From contig JAGIQG010000026.1 in assembly GCA_024679065.1 (NCBI GenBank), positions 31,992,001 to 32,056,000 on the forward strand: a stretch of 64,000 bases of DNA. The letters run 5' to 3'. This DNA comes from Sphyrna mokarran (lineage: Eukaryota). Position 1 is the stretch's first letter. Each line of letters begins with the position of its first letter. The notes under the pieces are model-generated. The model had not been told where the DNA came from. It saw only the letters and a program-made list of their open reading frames with translations, and made no database searches. Made by a program: the position numbers and the translations under genes. This document shows positions 39,401-64,000 of this stretch, piece after piece.

Positions 39401-42400
39401 TGACAGAATTACAAGCATCAAGGTAAATGATTTTAAATCCAACTTATAAGCAAACAAGAGAGAGTAGTCTGCACACATATGAAATGCAATAAGAAATTTA
39501 AATAAGTGATGATGATTTAAAAACATATACGTTGATATTTTGGAATGTAGTAAATTACTTTATAAATGTATTTTATAAAGATTATTGTTCACTTTAGCCA
39601 TAGGCAGATTCCCATGAAGTATGATGATAAAGGGCATTTGCACAGAACCACATTCTAACGGAATAACGAAACCTTGGAAATATGTACGTTTTATCAGCAG
39701 AGTTTCTAATGGTGAAACATTCACGGCAACTTCATGAATAGCTTTGTTTACTGTCCAGATGAGATGGATGCATGCCCAAATGCGTGATAATGTGTTAGTC
39801 TGACTTGACAATGACCTGGAGGGACGTGCGTGGGAATGTTAACTTTGAACTTAGTGGTCAGGCTTCCGGTTACTAAGGGATACAGGATGTTGAGTTAGCT
39901 AAAATGGAAAAATACATCCAATTTCATTGACAAATGAAATACCTTTATGCCAGAATATAAGGTGCAATTGGCTGGAGTATGTAACAGGTTTAATTGTTAA
40001 TTTATGTATATTGAGGATGATTGATTCAAAACTAATGAAAGGCGGATGGATCTAATTCTAAAATGTATAATTGATCTATCTTGAACTGTATATGCCAGGA
40101 CTTATTGAAGACATCTGGCTGCGCCTAGGACTCTTGAATAATTTCTCCCCATGATCATTTGTCAAATAAAGTTACTTCTAACTGAGACACTGGCTTTCAT
40201 GAGCCTTTATTGTCTAAAGTTTCAGCAATATCTGGCTCACCTCGCAAACTCTAAAACACCTGTTTTTTTTCCAATGACAATTCTTTGTGTTTCAATTAAT
40301 TAACTGAGGCAGGAACAGTCCATAATGTGGTTCTGCATATGATGGTGCCATTCTACACAAGATTTCTTGGCATCCTGTATTTTGCCTCTTTGACATATTT
40401 TGCAATTACTTTATTAAAAAGAACCATAAGAGACGTTATTCTTTCTTTCACTTTTACCTGGGCTGAGCAAACTATTCTCCATTCCCTTTACCAGAAATCA
40501 CCCCAGTTTTGCTTAGAAACTCGTAGCTCAGGTTGGGAACTAAATAGTCGTGCTAGCACCTCTAGCACCATCTTACTCCTTTGAAATCTTATCCCCTATT
40601 CATTATCTTGTAAACTTCCAAAATCAAGCTGTTCATCTTAAATGTAAGGCAGCACAGAATTCATAGAATCATATTGTGCAGAAAGAGGCCATTTGGCCCA
40701 TTGAGTCTGCACCGACAACAATCCCACACAGACCCTATCCCATATTCCTACATACTTACCCACTAATCCCTCTAACGTTTGCATCCTGGGACACTGAGGG
40801 ATAATTTAGAACAGCCAATTAACTTAGCCTGCACATCTTTGGACTGTGGGAGGAAACTGGAGCACCCAGAGGAAACCCAAGGAGACACAAGGAGAATGTA
40901 CAAACTCCACACAGGCAGTGACCCAAGCCGGGATTTGAACCCAGGTCCCTGGAGCTGTGAAGCAGCAGTGCGAACCACTGTGCTACCGTGTTGCATTGGA
41001 GACATTATTGTACGAGTAGCCCATCACTACTCTACAACACTGAGATGGAATCAAAAAATTAAATCAAATGCATCAGCAATGCCAAGCACTATAAATAAAG
41101 TTATCTGATTATTTAGCCTAAGCTTTCAAACAATTTAATACCCATATGACTGACTGACCTAAATTAGGATCAAGTAATACAGACAACAATAGAAAGCACA
41201 GTAAATAAACATACCTTTTTTAATGTTGCAACGAGATCACTGTGTTTTTGCAAGAGTTGTGTAGTGACTTGCAGTGTTCGCAGTTCTTCAAGTGCCTCCA
41301 CACACTTCTTGACATCCTACAAAACACCAGCCATTAAAGCATTTGGCAAAAGTTTAACCTCTATATATTGTTTGCTTAGCTTTCAATTGCTTTTCAGTGG
41401 AATCTTTGCATTCCTCTAAGATCCTAAGAAATAAGAGCAGGGTTAAACCATTCAGATCATTGAACCTGCTCCCTCTTTCAGTATCATCTGATGGTGGCCT
41501 TAAGTCCACTTTCCCAATCTGTCATTTAAAATCCTCAACTCCCTTGTCAAGTAAAAATCTCTCTATCTCAGTTATAAATGTATTCCATCACCAGAGAGAA
41601 TAAATTCCATCTTCATCTGAAAATAGGGACATCTTATTTTTAAACTGCATCTTCTGGTTCTAGATGCCCCCACTGCAGGAGACATCCTCTTAGCACCTAC
41701 CTTATCTTTTTTGACAGTCATGAAATGGTTCCTTAAACTGAAAATCTGATGTGTTATATTTATTCTTACCTAGAGAATCGTTTACTAAGAAATTATTAAT
41801 TAATCCTGTTTCATTATCTATTACCATGTCTAAAATAGCCTGCTAGGTTTCAGATCATTTTGTTCTCAAAAAACTAACCCGAATACACTCCATGCACTTA
41901 TTCTCTAGGTTACCTTTGCCAATTTAATTCATCCAATCTATTTGAAGATTAAGATCTCTTATGGTTGTTATCTTACAGGCCTTTCTTACTTCTTGATTCA
42001 TAATCCACTTTTGTACAAATGCTAAACATCACAAACTGTTATGCATCTCTAGATTCGAAGATTGTCAACATCCTTGACATTTTTCATTCAGTTCTTTTCT
42101 GACATAACTCTACCTAGCAATAGTAATAAGATGATATTTTCTACTATTTCCTAAGCAAGACTAGCCATGCCTGTGACTTTTAGATACACAAAACCTGAAC
42201 AATAGTGCCATCCAGTGACTTGCTATAAACAGTGTATCTGAATGGCCTGAACATCAAAACTTTCACATCCAATAGTGAAATCATTTCTTCATTTCTCAAT
42301 CTTCTCCAAGAAAATAATTGCCTTCTTTCCATAATACAATGGATAGTGCATTGGCAATGTTTGATGTTACATTTCACTTGCTCAACTTCAAAGCTATTTC

Positions 42401-45400
42401 CTATCTAATTTTCATTTCTATGTTGTAAGTTCTGTATTTAATAAGACAAATGATACTAGTTCCACAAAAATGGTGCAGGAGGGAGGTGTCAGTGGTGGTG
42501 GTGGCGTCTCAAAGCAGAAGCACAAATCTTATCTTTTATGCGTCAGGAACTTGCCCTTCCCAAATTTTGGGTTTGCACTGTACAATATAGTGCTTTGAGA
42601 TCAGCATTTTGCAGTACATTCCTCTGGGTTCATTTCTGTGTAACTGGATGACCACTGGCATGTGAATGGGATATTGCAATCTTGCAAAAGTCCTTCTATT
42701 TTCTGGAAGGGACCTGCATGCTCCAAGCAATATCAATTGTGAAACAATTCAACATGGCCAATCAATCTAACTTGCACATCTCTGGGAGGAAATCAGAGCA
42801 CCCAGAGGAAACTTACATTGTTGAACAGGTTAGTTATTACAATGATTTTAAATAACTTTCTTAATAGTTCTCCTAATACAAGGACTCCACACTTAGTGGG
42901 CCAAATGTTTTTTAATTAGTATTCTCCCAGTATCTAGTTGTACTAGATCTAAAACTCCCTTTTCCATATTTACTTCTTTACTGTTGCAGACTGTCATACA
43001 CTTTCACTCATTATGCTTCCTTAATAGGGCATGAAGCAGAATCTCTGACCCTTATTGTCACTACCTGAGGCATCAGTTTCCTGGGCATTATTTTCACCAC
43101 ACCCACTCGACCCCACCCCAGCATCACCATCTCCCCAATCCTTGTACCGACATGAATAAAGCTATTGAGCATCACACTCAATTTTCTCCAAGATGCCCTA
43201 GAAATAATCTAATTTTCTCAAACTAATGTGGTAGTTGAAATACATCCTGGACAGGCGCCAAGTCTAATTCTTTATGTGCTGAATGATAATCCGCAGTTTT
43301 AAAAGTCGCAAGTTGTGAACCTAACCTCACTCAGCTGCATATATACCTCAAATTCCTTGAATATTAAATCATTCCCAAAATAAGTTATTTGGTTAACTGG
43401 GAGTCTAATCTTTTACATGGTAGGCTTCCCTTGAGGGGTCTCACTTAGTTAGCTTGACATATGTACTTGTCCCAATCCAAGTGATTGGGTATCCTTGGTT
43501 CAAGACATTAGATCTTAAAAGAGGATTTATTTTACCTAATTTGAATTGATATAAGTAAATGCAACCAGAAACTATGAAGTGCCTAGACTGGAAAAAAAAA
43601 TTCTGCACAATCAGAAAAACTGTTAAATGAAATAAAGAAAAGCTTTACATGAACTGGATTCCACTTTGAAATTGCTAGAATCTTCGAAGGACTTGGAATT
43701 AAAAACAAATTATTTTAAATCCTATACAAACTACACATCAGTCCCGACTTCCCCAAAGGAAATACGAAGCCGATTTTCAACGCAAATCTTTACTGATACT
43801 CACAGGACTGTCAACCTTTAGAGCATGTTTAATGTCTGTGTGAATCTTTTGAAGCTTCTGTTCTGCGGTCATCTCTGTTAAATAAAAGAAATGTGTTGGA
43901 TCTTCCACAATATTCCTTTATATACCACAAGAGGGAGACAGCATGAAGACAGCAGACCAGGCAAATTATTAATTCATTCAGTCTCTATCATTCAAGCTAT
44001 AGGGTTGATATGTGCACATCTTAGATCCTACTTCAGCCTTTGTAAAAAGTTTTCTCCATTAAGTTCAGGAGACCTAGTTCATGGATTAAAGGTCTGGATA
44101 GAACCACAGAATTTATACTGTGCAGATGGAGGCCATTCAGCCATTGAGCCTGCACCAACAACAAATCTCACCCAAGCCCTATTCCCATAGCTCCAAGTAT
44201 TTACCCTGCTCGTTTCCCTGGCACTAAGAGAGACAATTTAGCATGGTCAATTAACCTAACTTGCATATCTTTCGAGTGTGGGAGGAAATCAGAGCACCCA
44301 AAGGAAACCCAAGCAGACAAGGGGAAAACGTGCAAACTGCACACAGTCACTTGAGGCCAGAATTGAACCTGGGCTGAGGCAGCAGTGCTAACCTCTGTGC
44401 CACTGGTTTTTCCTTTGGTTACTTGAAGAGAGCAAGATGAGTTTGATATTTTAATACCATCCTGCCCTCATTTGAAAACTAGCCTGTGCAACAACAATCA
44501 CATCCACAGATGCTCTATACAGTCTACTCCACCACAATATGTTTGCAGTTGTAATGATATTGATGTTATTAACGTTTAGCATCATTAATCTATGGCAGAA
44601 CTATCACCTCGCCTGCCACAGAATTGGCGCAGGCGAAGATTTGACAATGGAAATCTCCATTGACATTGTGGAAATTTCCAGTCTCGCCTGAGTGATGCCA
44701 TAAAATCCTGTCCTAGGTGTCTTCACATCTCAATTTTTATTTTACTTGTAAAAATCATAGAAAGAGAACCATAAAGCCTGATTGTTACTTCCTGGTTTGC
44801 TGACTTTGAGAATGCTTTAAGATGATTGGCTACTTAGCTTGCTTGTCAACATAATTCCTTCTTGATGCCAAAAGTTCTCACTATGATAAAATTCACATTG
44901 GAGAAGATGAAATCCATGTCAGATAGATCACTAGATCTTGTGGGCAGCTTTTTTAAAAAAAATCAGAGGGGAAGTGCTATCATTTCATACTGACTGCCAA
45001 ATCTGGGCTATCAAATTCCCATTAGATTGCATGTTTAAATTGCTTGTTTCCAACAGTAACTCAAACCCAAGAGGTACATACCTTTTTTCTTTTCTAGTTT
45101 CCGAGCTTGCAACTTTTCTTCTTTCTTCTTTTCCTTTTCTGCTTTGGCTGCCCTGCAGAAAAATTAATTACTTAAATATGAGAAAAGAAAATCTCTTCAA
45201 TTAGTAACTTCAATCCTGGGTTTTCAGGAGTGGTAGCTTTTTCTCTTTAACAATAAAGGGAAAGGCGTGCATTTGTAAAACATCTTCCTTGACCTCAGGG
45301 CATTGCAAGTGCTTTGCAGCCAATTAAGTACTTTACTGAAGTGCTCTAACTCGACCAGCGTAGGAAGTGTGGCAGCCACTATGCACAGATCAAGGTCCCA

Positions 45401-48400: not shown

Positions 48401-51400
48401 ACACAATAAACTAATCATGTTATTGTATCTTTAGAAAGTTACAGACATTGTAGGCCTCAAGATAGCAAGCTAAATAAATAATTCATTTTGTCTAATTAAC
48501 CCATCGTAGGGAAGATAGGTTACAAATGCTAATTAATACTTATGACAAGTCGTAAATTGATTAATGTTTAATTGCAAGTACATAAATAATGAAACTAATA
48601 ATGAACTCATCCATTCCCCAATGCTTAGATATTACTAGTTGCTATGAAAATGAATGCCAAATGCAGAAATGATTTTCCTTCATTGCAATACCTGGTTTCC
48701 TGCCTCTGGTAGGTTTCTTTATAGAGTCATCAGAGTCAGATTCTCTCTTATATTCTTCATCGTCATCCTCATCTTCTTCTTGCTTAGCTTGTTCCTGCTC
48801 CTCTTTATCATCATTTTCATCCTCTTGCTTCTCATCTTCTTCCTCCTCCTCTTCCTCTTCAGAATCATACTTCTAGAAAAGTTTATAGAGAAAATAAACA
48901 ATTTGACTCTTAATCTGAGGTTGTGGAGAGAAGGAGAAGGGGGGAATAAGAGTCAAACTGTACAAAATCTGAGTGATTGACAAGTCATCCAAAAATTGGA
49001 TGGTGTTTGCAAATCATTCAACAATAAATGATATGTGCATACAGTATTCTCAACTAATAAGATGTCCCAAAATCCTTCACACACTGAGAAAGCCAAAATA
49101 AAATAAAAGTTTTGAAGAGATTTTTAAAGGCAGAGAGAGAAGTAATACAAAGGGATTTATGATGCAAGTTCCAAAAACAGTGACAACTGTGCTACTGATG
49201 GTAAAGCAAAGGAAGGAACGGAGGGAAGATGCATAAGAGGCCACAAATGAAGGAATCAGAGGGTGAGAGAGAGAAAAAGGACTGCAGAGAGATGGTGGAG
49301 AATGCTTATGGAAATGATGATGTAGTGATAATGTCACTGGACTAGTTTAGAAGATTAATCCAGAAGCTCAGGGTAATGCTCCGAGGCCATGAGTTCAAAT
49401 TCCACCACTGCAGCTGATGGGATTTAAATTGATGAAACAATGAAATTAATATCAATCTGGAAATGAAAGCTAATCTCAGTAATGATGACTATGAAATTAT
49501 TAATGACTGTCATAAAGACCCATCTAGTTCACTTACATCCTTTAGTGAAACGAATCTGCCGTCCTTACACGGTCTGACTAGATATGACTCCAGGCTCACA
49601 GCAATGTGATTGACTCTTAACTGCCCTTTGAAATGCTGAGCAAGCACTGAGTTCAAAGACAGATTAGGGAAGGGCAACAAATGCTTCTAGTGACGTCCAC
49701 ATCCCATGGAAGAATAGAACGATTGCTGCACTGGTTACAGTAAGAACTCAATGTGGGTTAGGAAACAAGATGTAGAGATGCCAGTGTTGGACTGGGGTAA
49801 ACTCAGTAAAGTTTTGCAACACCAATTTTAAATCCAACCAATTTATTTGATAGTAAATCCGCGAGCTTTCGACACTATGTTGTGCCTTCGTCAGGCAAAT
49901 GCAGTGTTCTGATCTGCAGAGGCACTCGTATCCGTGCCTCTGCAGATCAGAACACTGCATTTGCCTGACGAAGGCACAACATAGTGTCGAAAGCTCGCGG
50001 ATTTACTATCAAATAAACTGGTTGGATTTAAAATTGGTGTTGCAAAACTTTACTGAGTTAGGAAACAAGCACAGGATTCTGAAACAGCTATGCAACAAGA
50101 ATAAAAATAAAAGATAAAGATACAGGTAGACACTATTGAGGCAGTGCTAAGTCTTTGTTATAGACAGAGTACAAGACTGGAACTCAAATCAAGGTCAAAG
50201 AGGACATCTGTGTTGCATCGCATGTTTCAGCCTCACCACCGTGGGTAAAGAATCACAGAACTGTTACAGCGCAGAGAGAGGCCATTTGGCCCATTACTTC
50301 TGCACTGACTCTCCAAACAAGCATCAAGGTTTGGTGCCATTTCTCTGCCTTTCTCATGGCCTGCGCATTGTTTTTATTCAAGTAATCATCTAATGTCCTC
50401 TCGAAAGTCTCGACTGAATTTGCCTCTCCCACACTTACAGGCTGTACATTCCAGACCCAAACTACTTGTTGTCTAAAAGCTTCTTCTCACATCACATTTG
50501 CTTCTTTTGCAAACTGTGGCACAATCGTTAGTTCAGTTGCTATGCAGATACAGGGATTTGAGCCGGTATCTGTGGGAGTTTGCGCATTCTCTCCGTGCTC
50601 GCGTGTGTTTACTCCGGGTGCTCCAGTTTCCTCCTACACCTCAAAGATGTGCTCTTAGGCTGATTGGTGAAACAAATTGTCCCCAAATTGTCTCCCCAGT
50701 TTGGTTCCAATAAAGATTCCCATAAACATAGACAAGGATCATGGGTGGAAGTGTGAACATCAAAATGGCGGCGCAGGCTCGTTGGGCCGAAGGGCCTGTT
50801 TCCCATGCTGTGCTGTTCTTTGTTCTAGCAAAGTTCCAGGGACCTGGATTCGATTCTCGGCTTGGGTCACTGTCTGTGTGGAGTTTGCACATTCTCCCTG
50901 TGTCTATGTGGGTTTTCTTTGGGTGCTCCAGTTTCCTCTCTCAGTCCAAAGATGTGCACGTTAGGTTGACTGGCCATGCAAAATTACTTCTTACTGTCCT
51001 GGGATGCATATGTTAGAGGGATTAGCAGGGTAAATATGTGGGGTTTTAGGGATAGGGCCCTGGGCAGGATTGTTATCGGTGCAGATTTGATGTGCCAAGT
51101 TGCCCCTTCTGCACTATAGGGATTCAATGATCATCTTTTAGATCACTTTAAATCTGTGCACTTTTGTTTTTGGTCCTTTTACAAGTGGGAACTTTTCACC
51201 CCATCTACTCTGTGCAGCCCTTTCATGATTTGAACATCTTTATCAAATCTCTTAGCCTTCTCTCCAAGGAGAACAGATCTAATCTCTCTAAACTATCCTT
51301 ATAACTGAAGTTTTGAATCATTCTTGTAAACTCTTTTGCACATCCTTCCTCTAGCGTTGAGCCCAGAATTACGCATTATATTCCAGCTGAGATTTAACCA

Positions 51401-54400
51401 GTGTTTTGTATGAAAATATTTTCATTGTCACCAATACTGAGACTCATTTTATATTCCAGAATTATTAATTTAGTTTTGGTTCAACCAGCTGCCAAGGTAG
51501 GATTTGAACCAATATCCCCAGACTATCAATCTGGATTTTGGATTGGTTGAGCTACCATCTCCCGCAAAACAAACCAGCATTTAACTTTACATACATGTCT
51601 GTAGGTTAAAGCTTCTTCCAAAATTCTCAATCCACATCTTGGTGACTAATCTGACTTTGTTAGATTCTAGCTCCTCCTTACAAATAGAAGCACTTTCTCA
51701 GTTTCTCCTCAATCAAACACTTCCATAATTTTAAATATCTCAATTATCCCTTAACCTGCTCTTTTCATGTGGAGAGAGACCCAATATGTTCGGTCTTTTC
51801 CACTAAGTGTAATTTCACAGTTTTGGTGTCAGTGTGAGTCTTATTTGCAGTCTCTCCAATGCCTATGCATCTTTTTCATATGATATCCATTTCTATACAT
51901 AATACTCTAATGCAATCAAGGTCCAATGCAACTTTAGTGTAATTTCTCTACTCTTCAATTCTATCCCTTTAGAAAATGAATCCGAGTATTTAAGCTTGGA
52001 TATTTTATTATTGACCTGCATTCCTTTGTGATGTGTCTTTGTACACCCAGATCCCTAACCACCTAGATTCTCATCTTCCAAGTAATATGACCCCCTTTAT
52101 TTTTCTTACTAGAATGCAATTCTTTCACTTATGTTGATATTCAATTACCAATTATACATTCATTGTGCAAATTTATTGTAATTTGTGCAGCCCTCTTTGG
52201 TGTTGATTATTCCTCTCACTAAGAGTCATTCACAAATTTAGAAATTCTGCTTTTAATTCAAAATCTAAATTGTAGCGACCCACTGCATTGATCTTTGCAA
52301 GTCACCATTTCCTGCCTTCTGTCACTCTGGTTAACTAATCTCTATCGAAGAGTGAGAGATGATCAGGCAGAGGTGTTTAAAAATATTAAAAACATTTAAT
52401 AGGGCAAATATGCAGAAACTATTTTCTCTTGTGCAGGTGGAGTGCCATAGAGAGAGAATCAGGAATAAGAGGACATAATTATAAAACTGGTCATTCGCGA
52501 GCATATCAGGGAGAACTGTTTCACACAAAGGATAGAAGAAACATGGACTTTTTTTTCTCCCTCTCTTTTCCCTACTCCAACTCCTACCAAAAACTAGTGG
52601 ATAAGTAGCAATTTGAATGCAGAGAGATAAGTATGCTACAAAAGGGAAAAGGTGGGAAAATAGAGTTGTGGTGCAGATCATCTATGATCTAACAATACAG
52701 CTAGTAAGGCTGAATAATCTGACTGTCTTGCAAATGTTTCAAAAAGCAAACGGAGAAAAGGCTTAGCTCATATTTAGTGAAATATGTGAAATAAATATTT
52801 TAAAAGATGGCTAGATAGTAAATATATTGGGTGGGAGGGGGAGAGAGGATTGAACATCTATCTAATAGATGAATCTAGTTGCATCTAATCCATCTAGTTA
52901 CATGCACTTGCATATCAAAACTTAATGCATGACATTGGTGCCTTGTTTGGGTGTTTCAGAATCCAAATCCATCATCAAGAGTGCTTACTTCCATGAAAAT
53001 ATTCTATTCCTTAATAATACTCTCTTAATCTCATAGTAGAAATCCATTCTAACTTCTCAAGTTCTGTTTTATAAGCAAAAAGCCTCTGCATATAATGGTA
53101 GATGTGTAGATGGCTAAATAGCAAATAAATGCGTTCCTTTACTTTATACTTCAGAGCTTAAACTTATAAAGATTGGGATTTTTATGCAGAAAAATTATAT
53201 CTTTGGGTCATTAATCAATCAGAGATTTGCCAATCTTTGTAAGAGAATTTAGTTATCCTGTCACAAAGACACTCATACAACACAATTCAAATATCCAAGT
53301 TGAAAATGCTGATTACCCTTTTCTTCCTTCCAGCTGCAAGGCCGCGCCGAGGCGTTCTGGAAATTACTTTCTTTTCTAGCGTGAATTCCTAGAGGGAAAA
53401 ACATGAAACAGATCAAAAATATTTATCACAGAATTCCTATAGTGCAGAAGGGGGCTTTTTGGCCCATTGAGTCTGCACCAACCACCAACCTACCCAGGCC
53501 CTATCCCCATAACCCCATGCATTTGCCCTTCGAACCCCCCTGACACTAGGGTCAATTTAGTAAGACCAATCAACCTAACTCACACATCTTTAGACTGATG
53601 GAGAAAACTGAAGCACCCTGAGGAAACACACACAGACACGAGGAGAATGTGCAAACTCCACAGAGACAGTGACCTGAGACTGGAATTGAACCTAGATCTC
53701 TAGCGATGAGAGGCAGCAGTGCCAACATTATATCACCATGCTGCCTTCCCTGGGGATCGTCTGTGGCTGCTGTGCATTCAGTGTGGGCAGATTCTCTCTC
53801 ACTAACTCAGAAGCACTAAGTATCATCGCAGTAGCAGTCAATTAATTCACCACAAACTGGGACACATTGAAGCCCTCTCTGGTCTGTAAACTTTAACTAT
53901 TCAGTGGACCATCGAGAGATTTAGACTGAAATGGTGAGGGAAGTGAGGGTGGGGTGGCGGAGGGCCAGAGTGAGAAGAATGTCAATGGATGTTCCTGAGA
54001 CTGTCAAGCCTGAGATCGATAGATTTCTATGTATTTAAAGCATCAAGGGATAGTGCTGGAAAAATGGTGAAGAAAATGATCACTATGATCGCATTGAATG
54101 ATGCTGTGGGCTCAAAGGACTGAATGGCGTCTTCCTGCTCCTCTTTCTGCTCTTACGTTCAAAGATTGCACACAACTATGAAAAGGTAACAGCCCATTTT
54201 TATTATTTTTCTCTTCCATGAATCAATATTTAATGTTTATACTTACTTGGTCACTATTTTTCTCAGATTCTGAAGAACTTGCTTCAGAATTCTCCTCCAG
54301 CGAGTTAGAGCCACTTTCCTCTTCTTCTTCATCACTTGATTTATGAGCTCGTTTTGGAGGCAGTTTCTGCAGATTTACAAAAGAGCAAACTTAATTTTTT

Positions 54401-57400
54401 TTCCCATTGATCAGCGTTTGATTGGTGCTGGTTGGGATTTACTGCTTTTAATAAAAAAGGCAACTTTGATTAATTTCAATTAGAGATAAAAACGCTACCA
54501 CGTGAATCAATCATATCACCTCTCATTTTTCTGAGCTCCAAGGAATACAAATCCAATCTGTTTAATCTTTCCTGATATGCCAATTTCTCCATATCCAGGA
54601 TCATCCTGGTAAACCCATCTGTACTGCCCCCAATGATCATAGAATCATAGAACCCTACAGTACAGAAAGAGGTCCTTCAATCTATCGCGTCTGCACCAAA
54701 CACAATCCTACCCAGGCCGTACCCCCATATCTCTACATATTATACCCACTAATCCCTCTAACCTACACATCCTTGGACACTAAGAGGAAATTTATTAGCA
54801 TGGTCAATCAACCTAACCCTCTCATCTTTGGACTATGGGAGGAAACCAGAGTACCCGGAGGAAACCCAAGCAGACACATGGAGAATGTGCAAATTCCACA
54901 CTGACAGTGACCCGAGCCAGGAATGGAACCCAGGACCGTGCTGTGAAGCAGCAGTGCTAACCATTGTGCTACCATGCCACCCAAATAATATGTCTTTCTT
55001 TTCATAAAGGAATCAAAACTGTATATTGTATTCTAAATATGGGCTGACTAGTATCTTACACAGTGGCAGCAACACCTATAATTTTGTACTCCAATTACCT
55101 TGAAATGAAAGCCAGAATTCTACTTTACCACCTGCACCCGTATGCTAGCTTTCTTGGTTTCAATGATCAAGGACACCAAGTTCCTTTGTGCTACAACTTT
55201 TTGCAGTCTCTTTCCATTTAAACAATAATCCAGCTTCTCATGCTTTCTTTCAAAATGAACAGTTTCACATTTTCCCACATGGAATTCCATTGGTAACTAT
55301 ATAAATAGTTACAAGGAAGGCATGGTGGCACAGTGGTTCACAGTGCTGCTTCACAGTGCCAAAGACCCAGGTTCAATTCCAGCTTTGGAAGACTGCGAGC
55401 AGTTTACACATTCTCCCCGTGTCTGCGCAGGTTTCCTCCCACAGTCAAAGGTGTGCAGGTTAGATGGATTGGCCATGCTAAACTGCCCCTATGATGTGTA
55501 GTCAGGGGGATTAGCGGGGTAAATACGTAGGGTTACGGGAAAAGAGCCTAGGTAAGATAGTCTGTCAGAAAGTCAAAATGGACTTGATGGGCTGAATGGC
55601 CTCCTTCTGAACTGTAGAGGTTTTATGATACTAAGATTGGAAGGCACTATTTATACTGGCTACAAATTTTACAAGTTCCAATAAATTCCCCAATCCTTCA
55701 AAACTTCTGCTTTGTTTGAATGTTTTTTTTACATTAAATGGTTCAAAAGAAAACTTGCCACAACACAGCAGTGTAATTCTAATATTTTAGACAAATACAG
55801 CCACAGTGGAACTCCAGGCAAGTTTGATTTCTGTTATCAATGCTCATTTTTGCTTCAATTTTGAGAGAATGTTTAAACCTTCTAAAATGTGATAAAGAGC
55901 TAAACTGGGCCAAACATATATATAATACAAAGATGAGTAATCAATGCACATTTGGAATTCCTATATTAGGATAGTACATCCTATTCGAGAGATCTGGAAA
56001 GCAGATAAAGTGCCTACAATCTATCTGCACAAGGAATGACAACTGCATCATCAATGTGATATATTGGGGATAGGAGACTGGTCATCCTAATTTGAAAAAG
56101 ACGATTAACACTGCTAAAATTGTAACTATATTTCAGAAATCCGCCAGGGATGAATCAGACCTTTATTGCTACCTAGTGAAAAACCAAGGTTATTGTATTG
56201 TGGCTTTGTTCAAATTAAACTCCCGATCCTTTGAATCTAATACCATTAATTTGATAGTTGATAAATTTTCTTTGACCAGAATTTTCCAGCTCTTCACACT
56301 GGCAGAATTCTCTTTGTTTCCCGCCAGCAGTGCATCCTTGCTGCAGGTTTTCCAGTGGCATGGGTGACTTAAATGGGAATTCTATGATCGGAAGAATGGT
56401 TTGCTGCTCTGAAACAAGAAAAACCCAGTGTGGTTACTGGGATAGTGGGAAGGATTGTTAGGATTGTTGTCATGCAGATACAATGGGTTGAATGGCTTCT
56501 TTCTATACTGCAGGGATTTTTTGGCCAAAGATGATCTGCCCAAAGATGATCTGCCCAATAGATGGCAGAAATTGGGAGATGTTGAGAGGATCTAATGGGT
56601 GGTTGAGGGGGAGGAAAGTTTTAAAAATAGGGCGCATGTTGTCAGTAGTTAGCACTACTGCCTTACAGCACCAGAGACTTGGTTCAATTCCGGCCTCAGC
56701 TAACTGTGTGTGTGGAGTTTACCCGTTCTTCCCTTGTCAGTGTGGGTTTCCTCTGGGTGCTCCAGTTTCCTCCCATATTCAAAGATGTGCAGGTTAGGTT
56801 GACTGACCATGCTAAATTATCCATTAGTGTCAGAAAGATTTAGCAGGATAAATACATGGGGTTACAGGGATAGGGTGGGATTGTTGTTGGTGCAGACTTG
56901 ATAGGCTGAATGGCTCTTTCTGAACTGTGGGATTCTATGATGATTCTCTGAGGCCAGATTTTGTTTACTTTGAACAGACTCCAGACCAAGAATGTTATGG
57001 ATAATCTGTTTTGGAGGTAAAGGTCTTGCTTACTCATGGGAGCATTGTGGGTTTTAATTGAACAGGATTTATTTTAATTTGTAAGCTTTTTCATAACGTT
57101 AAGTACAATGTTTTGACTCAAAACAATCATTAGTCATAAAAATATGTTGGTGAACTTGGCTGTTGAAGTGTTAATTAGATAACATATTAGCTGTCAAATT
57201 TTCATTTGTACTTGTATCAAAACATGAAGCCAGCCAGTCAATCAAAAAGACCCAGCACTGAGAAATGCCTTAGGCTTAGCAAGAATGGGCTTCATTCATT
57301 GTTGTTGATAGACTACTTACGCTTAATGAAAAAGGTGCTGGAAGCACTTTTGAGTGGAAAATTAAGATATCAACATTTTCAAATCCACCAATTACTGATT

Positions 57401-60400
57401 TCAACAGAATCACGATAAGGGTCAGTTGACCATTCCACCCTATCGTTAACTCCTGTCAGATGACTTTTAGATCATCAGAAAGCTGACTGGTAAAGAAGGG
57501 TGATTTGGGTGTGATCCAGAAATCAAATGCCTTTACAGCACTGCTTGTGGGCCAGGAGAAGCAAGACTGTTTCTTCCAGATATAAAAAACTGACCCCACA
57601 ACCTATCCTACCAAACTGTCTGACACAACTCAGGGATCTCTTCACCACTCCTCTTTCTCACTAAACCTACTTGAAGATTTTCCTACTTAACAGGGAGACT
57701 GCCAGCTTATCAATCAGGCTGGCTGTTGGATGGGATACTCAGCAAATACCACCTGGCTAGGTATATGTTTCCTAAACAGTTCAATGGAACACAAAATCAA
57801 TATCTTACAGGCCCACCATTAAACTTCACCAGAACCTGAGATTATACATGGGTTAAATACATTCATGTTTAGCATCATAAAATTGAGGTGGAACCCCAAT
57901 TAGTACTTCTATATCAATATCGTTCTATTCAATCCTTATTTAAATTTCAGTTGATTTCCATTGCTCCAAGGCAATAATTTGATTTATAATCTTAATTGTT
58001 AGCAAAAGCTGCATGGTAACTACTGAAATTTGTATACAACAAAAATGAGGACAGGAAAAGCAGCATCCATAAAGCCTGACATCATGACTCCATCTGCCAC
58101 ATTTCCAATCCATTCCCCTGACAATCTGCTTGTGGGGACCAACTTCTGCTCATTGTTAATGTAAATATGAATAATTTGAATTAAAGATATGTTATGGCAT
58201 CTAAAATATTTCTAAGTGTCCAAATTCACAATATTCAGTGGAGTTTATTTTGTTCCTATGCACCATGGTAATTCGTCAACTTTGATTATAGCATTGTTGT
58301 TGAGGCACTTGATTACTTAATACTCTTCAACCATTGCTTCATTACACCTTTACTGTATTAATACATAATGCCAGAGGTAGTAGTAGACACGGCTCCCAAT
58401 TTTGCCTTTTAAAGAGCACTTAGACAATTATATGGATGAGATGGGTATAGAGGGATATGGGCCACATGCAGTCAACTGGGACCAGCTTAGTGGTAAAAGC
58501 TGGGCAACAAGGGCAAGTTGAGCCAAAGAGCATGTTTCCATGCTGTGAACCTCTATGACTCTAGAACTGAAATTGCACACTACCTAATGACAGCAGTATT
58601 AATGTTGAACAGAGCCATTAGTCAACATTAACCATGCAATTTTACTAAGGTAATTAATAAAGAACTCAATGGTATCTATTTGTAGCAGTACAAATAATAA
58701 TAAAAGCATTTGAACATCCCTCGATTAATGCTGGAGGACACATTTCATGATAATATGTTGTTAAATGTGCTGTTATCAGTAACAGTACTCTGCAGTTGCA
58801 AAGCAAGATAAAAGAGAAACAAATAAAGAGAAAGAGGGAAGGAAAAAGAGACAGAGAGAAATAGGGAAAGAAAAAAGAGCAAGAGGGGTGGGGGGAGGGT
58901 TGGTGGTGGTGGTGGACGGTGGACAGAGAGAGAGAAAGCGCATGCGTGCGATTGAGCGATATCTTCCACGTATGTAAGTCATTTCACATCATTTGAATGT
59001 CCGAAATGAATCAACATTAAAATATTCTAAAATAGTCACTATTTATGCAGGCATAAGTGGTAATCAATTTGTACATAAAAGTCTTGCAAATTTCTATGTT
59101 GATTAATTATTTACTTTATTGTTTTTAAAGAAGTGGTGTTGGCTGAGGTATAGATGTTGGCTGTGTTGAATTCTTTGCTCTTCTTTGAGAAGGATGTGAA
59201 ATATTTCAAACAGACCTGAACCAGTAGGTCTTGGTTTAACCCCTCATCCAAAAGACAAGCCAACATTCTAGCGAGTGATTCTCCCATCCCACTGCACTGA
59301 TTTTTTTAGGGCCAGATTTCAGCAGGGCTGGATTGGCGTAATCTGTGCTGGGCATTTGGCACTAATATAGAAGATAGAATATTACAGCATAGTACATACC
59401 CTTCGGCCCTCAATGTTGTACCGAGCTATATCCAATCTGAAGAACAAACTATCCAACTCCCTATAATTCTGGTGTGCTCCATGTGCCTATCCAATAACCG
59501 CTTGAAAGTTCCTAAAGTGTCCAACTCCACTATTAAAGCAGGCAATCTATCCCACACCCCAACCACTCTCTGAGTGAATAATCTACCTTGGATATCCCTC
59601 CTACATCTCCCAGCATGAATCTTATAGTTGTGCCTCCTAGTAACTGCTACATCCACTCGAGGAAATAATATCAAGCCCGCACTAGAAATAGTAAAGATTT
59701 TAATGTTTCTTAAATACAATTAGCAGGACCGGGACTGAAATCTCCAGACCCACAACCTCCACCATAACCTTCAAATACTCCAGGAGTATTTTATTCCCAG
59801 GGATGTCCGATGGAGGGAGCGGGAGACAGTGATTGAGCTGGCCAGCAATCAGGAGGCCGGCACACAGGGGCTTCTGAGCATGTGCCAGTCTTGGCACTGA
59901 CAGATCGACATAAGCGCAGTGGCTATGCTGCCAGCCTCCTGGTGGGAATAGAATAGACCCTGCCCACAGCTTTTCAAGCTAGTGCACTCTGTAATGCATA
60001 ATGTGGGAAATTCATTTTCAAACGGTTACTGAAAACAAACAGTTCCAATACTCCAGTTTTCATGCAAATTCAACACTGTGGGAGAATCCTAGCATCTCTT
60101 TGGATTGGATGGGAATGTCACCCTAGTGTATGTGTTGATGTTGATCATCTAACTCAGGCAAGCGTGTTACCAGTGAGACAAGCTGACACAATGTTAGAGC
60201 AAATAGTCAAAATGCCTCAGCATCTTCCAGAGAGAAGAGGCTAATGCAAGGAATCACAGCAGGAAAACAAGCATTATTCTCAAAAAGGCTAGATGTCTAT
60301 AACAACCAACAGCCTCACTTGTAAGGATGTACCTTTGCAAGAAGCGGCTTCCTCTTGATTCCACTCTCTTCAATGCTATCCTTCTCGGATTCCACATCAC

Positions 60401-62659: not shown

Positions 62660-63822
62660 TAAACAACAACTTCAGTTCTGTCTTCATTGAAGAAGACACA
62701 AATAACTTCCCAGAAATGCTAATGAATCAAGAGTCTAGTGAGAAAGAGGAATTGAAGGAAATTAGTATCACTAGAAATATAGTCTGGGGAAATTAATGGA
62801 ACTGAAGGATGCTAAATTTCAGAGCATGATATTCTACACCTCAGGGTATCAAAGAAGATGGCCATGGATATATTGAATGTATTGGTTATCATCTCCCAAA
62901 ATTCTATAGATTCTATAGATTAGAACAGTGTCAGCAGATTGGAAGGTAGCAAATGTAACCCCACTATTTAAAAAAGGGAGAAAACAGGGAATTACAGGCT
63001 AGTTAGCTTAACATCAGTTGTAAGGAAAATGCAAAAGTCTATTGTAAAGAATTCAACAAAAGTACACTTAGATAATATAAACAGAATTAGATAAAGTCAA
63101 CATGGATTATGGAAAGAAAGTCTAAACCTACTGGAAGCTTCGAGGGCATAACTAATCGAACAGAATATATAAGAGTGAACCAGTGAATGTGGTGTATTTG
63201 GATTTTCAGAAAACGTTTGTTAGAGTCTCACACAAGAGGCTAGTGTGCAAAATTAAAGAACATGTGACTAAGGGTAATACCTTGGCATGGACTGAAAAAG
63301 GTTAGAAGACAGGAAACAGAGAGAATGAATAAATGGGTCTTTTTCAATGTGGTAGGCAGTGATTGCATGGATCAGTGTTTGGTTACTAGCTAGTCACAAT
63401 ATACATTAATGATTTGGATCAGGGAACCAAAAGTAATATTTGCAAGTTTGCTGACAACATGAAACCTGGTAGGATTGCAAATGGTGAGAAAGATGTTAAG
63501 AGGCTTCAAAGTGATTTAGACAAGTTGAGCGAGTGGGCAACCACATGGCAGATGCAATATAATGTGGATAAATGTGAAGTTTTCCACTTCAGATGGAGAA
63601 ACAGAACAGCAGAGTATTATTTAAATGGTGACCCATTGGAAATGTTGACATACAAAAGGGACCCGGATATCTTAGTACACCAGTTACTGAAAGAAAGCAT
63701 GCAGGTACAGCAAGCACTGAGGAAGGCAAATGGTATACTGGCCTTCATTGCAAGAGGACTTGAATACAGGAGCAAGGATGTCTTACGGCAATTGTATAAG
63801 ACTTTGGCAAGGCTGCAAGTGA
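62660..63822 (+). mobile_element. Degenerate CR1 LINE ORF2 (RT region)
   Basis: DWKVANVTPLFKK, YLDFQK.F..V.H.RL, YINDLD..., KFADNMK, WQMQYNVDKCEVFHF, KANGILAFIARG. Confidence 0.9.
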
Positions 63823-64000
63823 GGTAAAATTTTTAGGATGGCAAGCGATTGGCAATTGCCATCCCAAGAGTCAGCACATGTAATGTTGTCCCTCCAACTC
63901 TCAGAAGTCCACTGCCAATTAACATTCAACTGAGCATCGATTGGCAATGAGTGAGAATTCTAATTGCCCATGGAAGGACAGTCCTCCTTAGAAATGTTGG

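Follow-up and report, generated by a model that had tools for sequence, protein, structure and literature searches.

The palindrome at 49757-50069 of the window, the 64-kb stretch of DNA analysed here, is a dead, doubly 5'-truncated stub of a Penelope-like element (PLE), both arms being copies of the 3' pseudo-LTR (pLTR) end of a young family. It is a head-to-head insertion that probably arose when both nicks of a staggered 13-bp cut primed reverse transcription. Its inverted, one-tailed layout inside a target-site duplication (TSD), with hammerhead motifs on opposite strands, is an already published architecture, and as one of many such stubs the locus matters little; the statistics of its family bear on an open question, the origin of PLE inverted units that carry a tail at one end. 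The sequence-only reading of the palindrome as a PLE with hammerheads stands, whereas its descriptions 'very recent' and 'self-neutralising cassette' do not.

The two arms (49800-49925 and 49934-50059) are 126 bp each and differ by one mismatch (49841 versus 50018); they enclose a central loop of 8 nt (49926-49933), and a 30-nt extension (49770-49799) is present on the left only. An exact 13-bp direct repeat, found at 49757-49769 and 50057-50069 and nowhere else in the 64-kb window, flanks the whole. The arms, mismatch, loop, extension and repeat were thus all recovered at the coordinates first reported for them. As DNA, the palindrome folds with z = -35.5, and none of 100 shuffles was equally stable. 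Rather than a spacer, the loop is the continuation of the left arm, as the match to other copies covers 49770-49933 in full (164 nt). With positions d counted back from the tail end of the element, the window copy holds d0-164 in its left arm and d30-156 in its right arm, and 3 nt (50057-50059) belong both to the right arm and to the right TSD copy, a microhomology. The features of the locus are the following.

48873..53316, minus strand: putative HDGFL2 host intron, about 4.4 kb (GT/AG and phase read from the sequence)
49757..49769: left target-site duplication, 13 bp (exact repeat; typical TSD length of the family)
49770..49933, minus strand: tailed arm, the last 164 nt of the PLE pLTR, with its 3' end at 49770 (96-98% match over 164 nt to many copies)
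49770..49799, minus strand: PLE tail, 30 nt (abuts the ORF start codon in tandem copies, L031 and 162 exact tail-to-ATG junctions genome-wide)
49857..49900, minus strand: minimal type I hammerhead motif in HDGFL2 sense, predicted cut after 49863 (motif search and folding)
49926..49933, minus strand: unpaired loop, the extra 5' 8 nt of the tailed arm, with a blunt junction (alignment to other copies)
49934..50059, plus strand: tail-less arm, d30-156 from the tail end (alignment to the family)
49959..50002, plus strand: minimal type I hammerhead motif antisense to HDGFL2, predicted cut after 49996 (motif search and folding)
50057..50069: right target-site duplication, 3 nt of it inside the arm (exact repeat)

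Copies of the element were counted by exact patterns in the 2.77-Gb genome of the same animal. The 36-nt hammerhead pattern has 464 matches, against 0 for its control, and a pLTR 25-mer has 1,223, which amounts to roughly a thousand end copies. Around the pattern matches the window arm aligns at 96-100%, and copies extend upstream into ORFs with reverse transcriptase (RT) and GIY-YIG domains, so that the Penelope origin claimed beforehand is borne out by the very kind of ORF-linked copies that had been proposed as its check. In these linked copies RVT_1 scores above its cut-off (E 1.6e-9), and GIY-YIG (E 2e-4, 21.9-22.2 bits) falls 0.4-0.7 bit below the Pfam cut-off of 22.6. One copy, L177, has an unbroken frame of 850 residues with DKG, RYIDD and YIG motifs and a CX4CxxC linker at residue 755; another, L031, is full-length, with a 5' partial-tandem pLTR whose tail stops one base before the ATG. 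Across the family, the 5' pLTR pieces in partial tandem upstream of the ORF measure 65-817 nt. On the element map the predicted cut site is at d93, followed by the start of the hammerhead core (d125), that of stem I (near d131) and the stop codon (d345). The stub had been called an ORF-less PLE; it is a truncated copy of an autonomous family and not a separate ORF-less element.

In EN+ PLEs, units with an inverted 5'-truncated copy, a one-sided tail of 30-40 bp and a TSD have been described (Arkhipova et al., 2013, PMC3846280; Craig et al., 2021, PMC8557442). The shark family shows these features together with a single ORF that combines RT with a C-terminal GIY-YIG domain, and a partial-tandem pLTR. 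According to the available sections of one of these reports, a CX2-5CxxC linker before the GIY-YIG domain marks the Neptune and Nematis groups, and Penelope/Poseidon elements are without it (PMC8557442). By its CX4CxxC linker, rather than by a tree, the family would be of the Neptune/Nematis type, and membership in the Penelope/Poseidon clade was rejected on account of the linker in the L177 ORF. A non-LTR retrozyme was also considered and rejected: retrozymes of this kind are defined by tandem direct repeats with a hammerhead in each unit (10.64898/2026.07.22.740005), whereas the layout here is inverted, with one sense copy per strand and no tandem direct repeats.

The inverted layout is the default insertion product of the family, and the window locus is ordinary in this respect. 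In all, 88 insertions were classed, namely the window and loci from the first 100 listed of the 464 hammerhead matches (L101, which holds no element, was dropped). Fifty-one are inverted with both 3' ends and four are inverted with a 3'-truncated partner (55/88 inverted in total); 20 are solo and tail-less, and 13 solo and tailed. Wherever an inverted unit of this first set retains both 3' ends, one outer end is tailed and the other tail-less (51/51), three of the tail-less ends being further shortened to d45-81. The same holds for 19/19 inverted units of a further set, identified by visual inspection among 45 additional loci selected with the 25-mer, and for one suspected exception (1/1), which brings the total to 71/71 and makes the one-sided tail noted at the window locus a rule of the family. 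Two loci that had been candidates for exceptions, L178 and L223, are complex inside and nevertheless tailed/tail-less at their outer ends. At L223 (4649-5384), a 735-bp unit comprises seven pieces of two subfamilies, about 85% and 95% identical to the reference copy, tail-ATG junctions included; multiple template jumps would account for it, the outer ends still being tailed and tail-less. At L178 (889-1602), a single TSD encloses outer arms that are separated by a second inverted pair and some 400 bp of unrelated sequence. The centres of L036, L040, L087 and L051 contain fillers of 17-32 nt partly re-copied from nearby element sequence, as in short templated-synthesis repair.

Target-site duplications were called for 37 of the 56 pairs that passed the end filters, out of 69 entered; most of the 19 misses have at least four element bases after the tail, beyond the offset limit. 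All 37 are 11-14 bp long with a mode of 13, the length found at the window locus, where a flanking TSD had indeed been proposed. Near-perfect palindromes are a known artefact of reads and assemblies, and a fold-back of that sort would have to be envisaged for the palindrome. It is extremely improbable, given the family-typical TSD length, the one internal mismatch, the one-sided tail, the unique flanks in frame with the gene and the 70 other units of the same build. Of the 24 sequencing runs listed in a word search, one contains 0.78 of the words and is possibly the source sample, and no RNA run is among those listed, which is evidence in neither direction.

The ends of the arms are informative as to the template. 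The bases that follow the tail agree with the RNA continuation C-A-T-G in 51, 49, 46 and 33 of 56 cases at positions 1-4, and this start-codon sequence indicates that the template extends past the tail. Tail-less ends are scattered over d31-40, with a microhomology of 1.4 versus 0.5 nt (n=35), a figure inflated by the TSD-calling method. Among 87 arms taken from contig C1 of the same genome, which were selected through the 25-mer rather than the hammerhead, 20 have their 5' end at d110-142 (14 of them at d125-142), none at d145-160, and another 20 at d300-450, as a second cluster that spreads broadly to either side of the stop codon. The d110-142 cluster corresponds to the upstream edge of stem I, not to the cut site, and the 5' ends of the window arms lie just beyond it. 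These clusters possibly represent RNA starts or RT stops.

The window copy had been taken for a very recent insertion. Its left arm differs from the commonest letters of the family at 3/164 positions and its right arm at 1/126, against a median divergence of 0.8% over 134 arms, 28 of which show no difference at all. The family is young, and the window copy is not its youngest member.

Eleven segregating non-CpG sites of the family, which form linked haplotypes, show whether the two arms of a unit share a source. Within single insertions, the arms differ from each other at 59/244 sites in a first set (0.29 for random pairs) and at 20/89 in a second (background 1.1%); over family-segregating non-CpG sites, disagreement amounts to 75/292, against the 1.1% background. 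Sixty-one pairs were pooled, and the 34 with at least five informative sites were counted as informative: 19 differ at two sites or more, 3 at one and 12 at none. The two mirror arms thus often come from different source copies, 19 of the 34 informative pairs having different linked haplotypes. The window copy spans no informative site.

Arms with different haplotypes might also result from two separate insertions, a second copy having later targeted the 5' end of an existing one in the opposite orientation, and a review, in its available part, describes PLE insertion within or next to older copies (PMC6765202). This origin is highly improbable, as a single TSD of 11-14 bp brackets the whole unit and tail status is complementary in 71/71 units, whereas solo copies comprise both kinds, 13 tailed and 20 tail-less.

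Fold-back or self-priming is the explanation with a published basis, self-priming having been proposed in one of the EN+ PLE papers (PMC3846280) and endonuclease resolution of the tail in the other (PMC8557442). A single cDNA or RNA would form a hairpin and be copied, the endonuclease would resolve the second end before the tail is reached, and arms of unequal length would be due to a central deletion or conversion at a later time. As expected from such a process, fully concordant pairs are in excess (12/34, or 35%, against 16% by random pairing with a 95% range of 4-30%), and arms of near-equal length are too: among 45 simple pairs, six complex units being left out, arm lengths are correlated (rho 0.76) and 18 pairs agree within 25 nt, against 3.4 expected. 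The 8-nt loop of the window copy is likewise element-derived. The site-level contrast between matched and unmatched pairs was not significant (p 0.11). On the other hand, the different linked haplotypes in 19/34 pairs do not fit with fold-back, and the tail-less arm is the longer one by more than 25 nt in 14/45 pairs (the tailed arm in 13), which a tail-first fold-back could not produce. Haplotype discordance combined with a tail-less arm that is often longer is not predicted by one cDNA copied back on itself, and the strict tailed/tail-less pairing of arms from different source haplotypes favors two primed RNAs over fold-back. Later gene conversion or central deletion could mimic the discordance or the length asymmetry. 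Fold-back is therefore unlikely overall; it may apply to a subset of units, the window copy included, but not as the general route.

For the family at large, we lean toward double target-primed reverse transcription on two RNAs, often from different loci, with obligate asymmetric starts about 30 nt apart. One staggered cut, of 13 bp in the case of the window copy, would supply two nicks, and each would prime reverse transcription, with one start where the tail meets the start codon and the other some 30 nt deeper in the element. Priming would occur inside an RNA that spans a pLTR-ORF junction, in a complex that would hold two RNAs and would probably be dimeric, and the two cDNA 5' ends would be end-joined at the center, often with a short filler. 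In vitro, an anole PLE initiates internally at two sites, cuts and extends both target strands, and is predicted to be a dimer (PMC11167929); the C-A-T-G continuation after the tail fits this internal initiation at two sites. Contrary to the asymmetric priming proposed here, the start sites of the anole enzyme are alike on both strands, and no primer-template homology was observed, whereas strand asymmetry is strict in the shark family (PMC11167929). The excess of concordant pairs and the correlated arm lengths imply that a share of units may use one RNA twice or fold back, and the near-symmetric window copy is perhaps among them. If double priming on two RNAs is correct, the one-sided tail and the head-to-head palindrome would together make up one signature, that of an asymmetric dimer, and haplotypes would reveal it wherever a genome harbors a young family; the model is testable with the published purified-protein assay. 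A two-template model for PLE inverted units was not found stated in the titles and abstract openings searched, a scope that does not extend to key subscription papers.

The core motif of the hammerhead occurs twice in the 64-kb window, once per strand, against 0.14 expected. The features listed for PLE minimal type I hammerheads are all legible in it, in keeping with the initial claim, with cleavage itself only predicted: the core is intact, with an N between positions 9 and 10.1, a G10.1-C11.1 pair, palindromic positions 15-16 and an NUH triplet, and the motif has a 5-bp stem II and a 6-bp stem I without stem III. A relaxed minimal-hammerhead core is found 4,469 times genome-wide, against 3 for the reversed control. 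These cores span several PLE families that differ in stem II and have the same palindromic AGCT, which makes cross-family dimers possible in principle. Core position 7 yields ACG in the window copy and ATG in other families, and, in frame with the ATG of the ORF, the pLTR stays open across the hammerhead (in the window, 49748-50002 on the minus strand and 49857-50117 on the plus strand). Stem II pairs above shuffled partners (3.0 versus 2.5 of 4 over 25 distinct variants, p 0.0002, relatedness being uncontrolled), and the pairing of stem I across families is not above that of shuffled partners (p 0.36). An Rfam covariance-model search returned no hammerhead family up to E 10, as expected of a motif without stem III, and only sub-threshold miRNA hairpins. 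A miRNA precursor was discarded, the best score of these generic hairpin matches being 66 bits for a gathering threshold of 95.

Both hammerhead stems form in folding, with z of about -0.2 to -0.9, and in the natural context an alternative hairpin is predicted to bury the core. A modeled hammerhead dimer (-18.9 kcal/mol) does not gain over two monomers (2 x -9.6) and falls short of the minimum free energy of the dimer (-25.1), so that folding gives no support for dimer formation. The palindromic hairpin is predicted to out-compete the ribozyme fold, as had been suggested, with a ddG of 79.8 kcal/mol in its favor. The cut anticipated after 49996 would apply to plus-strand RNA; in the HDGFL2 pre-mRNA, transcribed from the minus strand, the predicted cut is instead at the mirror site, after 49863. 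The head-to-head arrangement means that, whichever strand is transcribed, the polymerase reaches the antisense arm first.

Single minimal PLE hammerheads are inactive and dimers cleave weakly, as reported in the accessible part of a survey (PMC4209133), and in vitro ribozyme cleavage needed the element's protein and was dispensable for insertion (PMC11167929). The notion of a self-neutralising cassette does not survive, because the inverted layout is the family default (55/88) and the minimal motif needs a second sense copy where the window has one per strand. With no partner in the window, the motif would probably be silent even without the antisense arm. In the HDGFL2 pre-mRNA the hammerhead is thus predicted to be inert, lacking stem III and a sense partner in cis and having its antisense arm made first, and the exclusion of the hammerhead by the hairpin would be a by-product rather than a device. 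A 126-bp duplex is a plausible editing substrate, and the predicted hairpin in the pre-mRNA would exclude the hammerhead fold; both might speak for a self-neutralising ribozyme with a bearing on HDGFL2, be it by switching cleavage or by serving as a substrate of ADAR/Dicer. Such a function appears quite improbable in view of the default layout, of the position of the stub about 0.9 kb from the nearest putative splice site, of the inactivity of monomers and weakness of dimers (PMC4209133) and of the dispensability of cleavage in vitro (PMC11167929). Most likely, the stub is a neutral piece of the intron and folds into a 126-bp hairpin.

The identification of the host gene as HDGFL2, on the minus strand, is supported by the exon at 41215-41316 (minus), which appears to encode the LEDGF/IBD domain: it matches Pfam LEDGF (E 1.7e-10), and its best structure match is HRP-2/HDGFL2 (chain 6t3i_A, E 4e-11, versus 2e-8 for LEDGF/PSIP1). 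Pfam was uninformative on low-complexity exons. The HDGFL2 exon at 48645-48872 (minus) codes for an extended acidic stretch, about 40 residues long. Under the predicted splicing, the insertion separates two exons of compatible phase, one ending at 53317 and the next starting at 48872, with the intron's 3' splice site as the nearest one; its location in an HDGFL2 intron, as first proposed, is therefore upheld. One short interspersed repeat has many copies in the window (40772-41108, 44201-44467, 50575-50957, 53570-55501, 56492-56797), and CR1-like LINE fragments are found at 59426-59719 and 63390-63827; these presumably resemble shark SINE and LINE families.

The nearest known systems are the EN+ PLE units, which have in common with the shark family the head-to-head inverted pLTR arms, the one-ended tail, the short TSD around the whole, the pLTR hammerhead and the partial tandems in long copies (PMC8557442, PMC3846280). 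They differ in that both window arms are reduced to 156-164 nt, and in TSD length, 11-14 bp in the shark family against 8-10 bp in the Adineta examples; the available sections of these papers invoke self-priming or endonuclease resolution, not two templates (PMC8557442, PMC3846280). With the minimal hammerheads of metazoan PLEs (Cervera and de la Pena, 2014, PMC4209133), the window motif shares the core, the extra nucleotide between 9 and 10.1, the G10.1-C11.1 pair, the palindromic 15.2-16.2 and the absence of stem III, and in Schistosoma opposite-strand pairs of such motifs lie 100-700 bp apart. The family and host are different, and the window motif is a putative ribozyme with a 5-bp stem II and a 6-bp stem I. 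Poseidon_Ac of Anolis (Frangieh et al., 2024, PMC11167929) likewise has two internal initiation sites that bound the tail, cutting and extension of both target strands and a predicted dimer; it does not show the strand asymmetry of the shark family in vitro, and its hammerhead and tail lie inside the ORF start region, whereas in the shark family the tail stops at the ATG and about 95 nt separate the upstream cut site from this codon. The CX2-5CxxC linker, present in the shark family, is absent from Penelope/Poseidon elements such as Poseidon_Ac, as far as the available descriptions go. In LINE-1 twin priming, both target nicks prime cDNA and an inversion arises inside one TSD, as proposed for the shark PLE; L1 makes use of a single RNA and yields segments that do not overlap. 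In contrast, the arms of the shark units cover the same sequence and often come from different sources.
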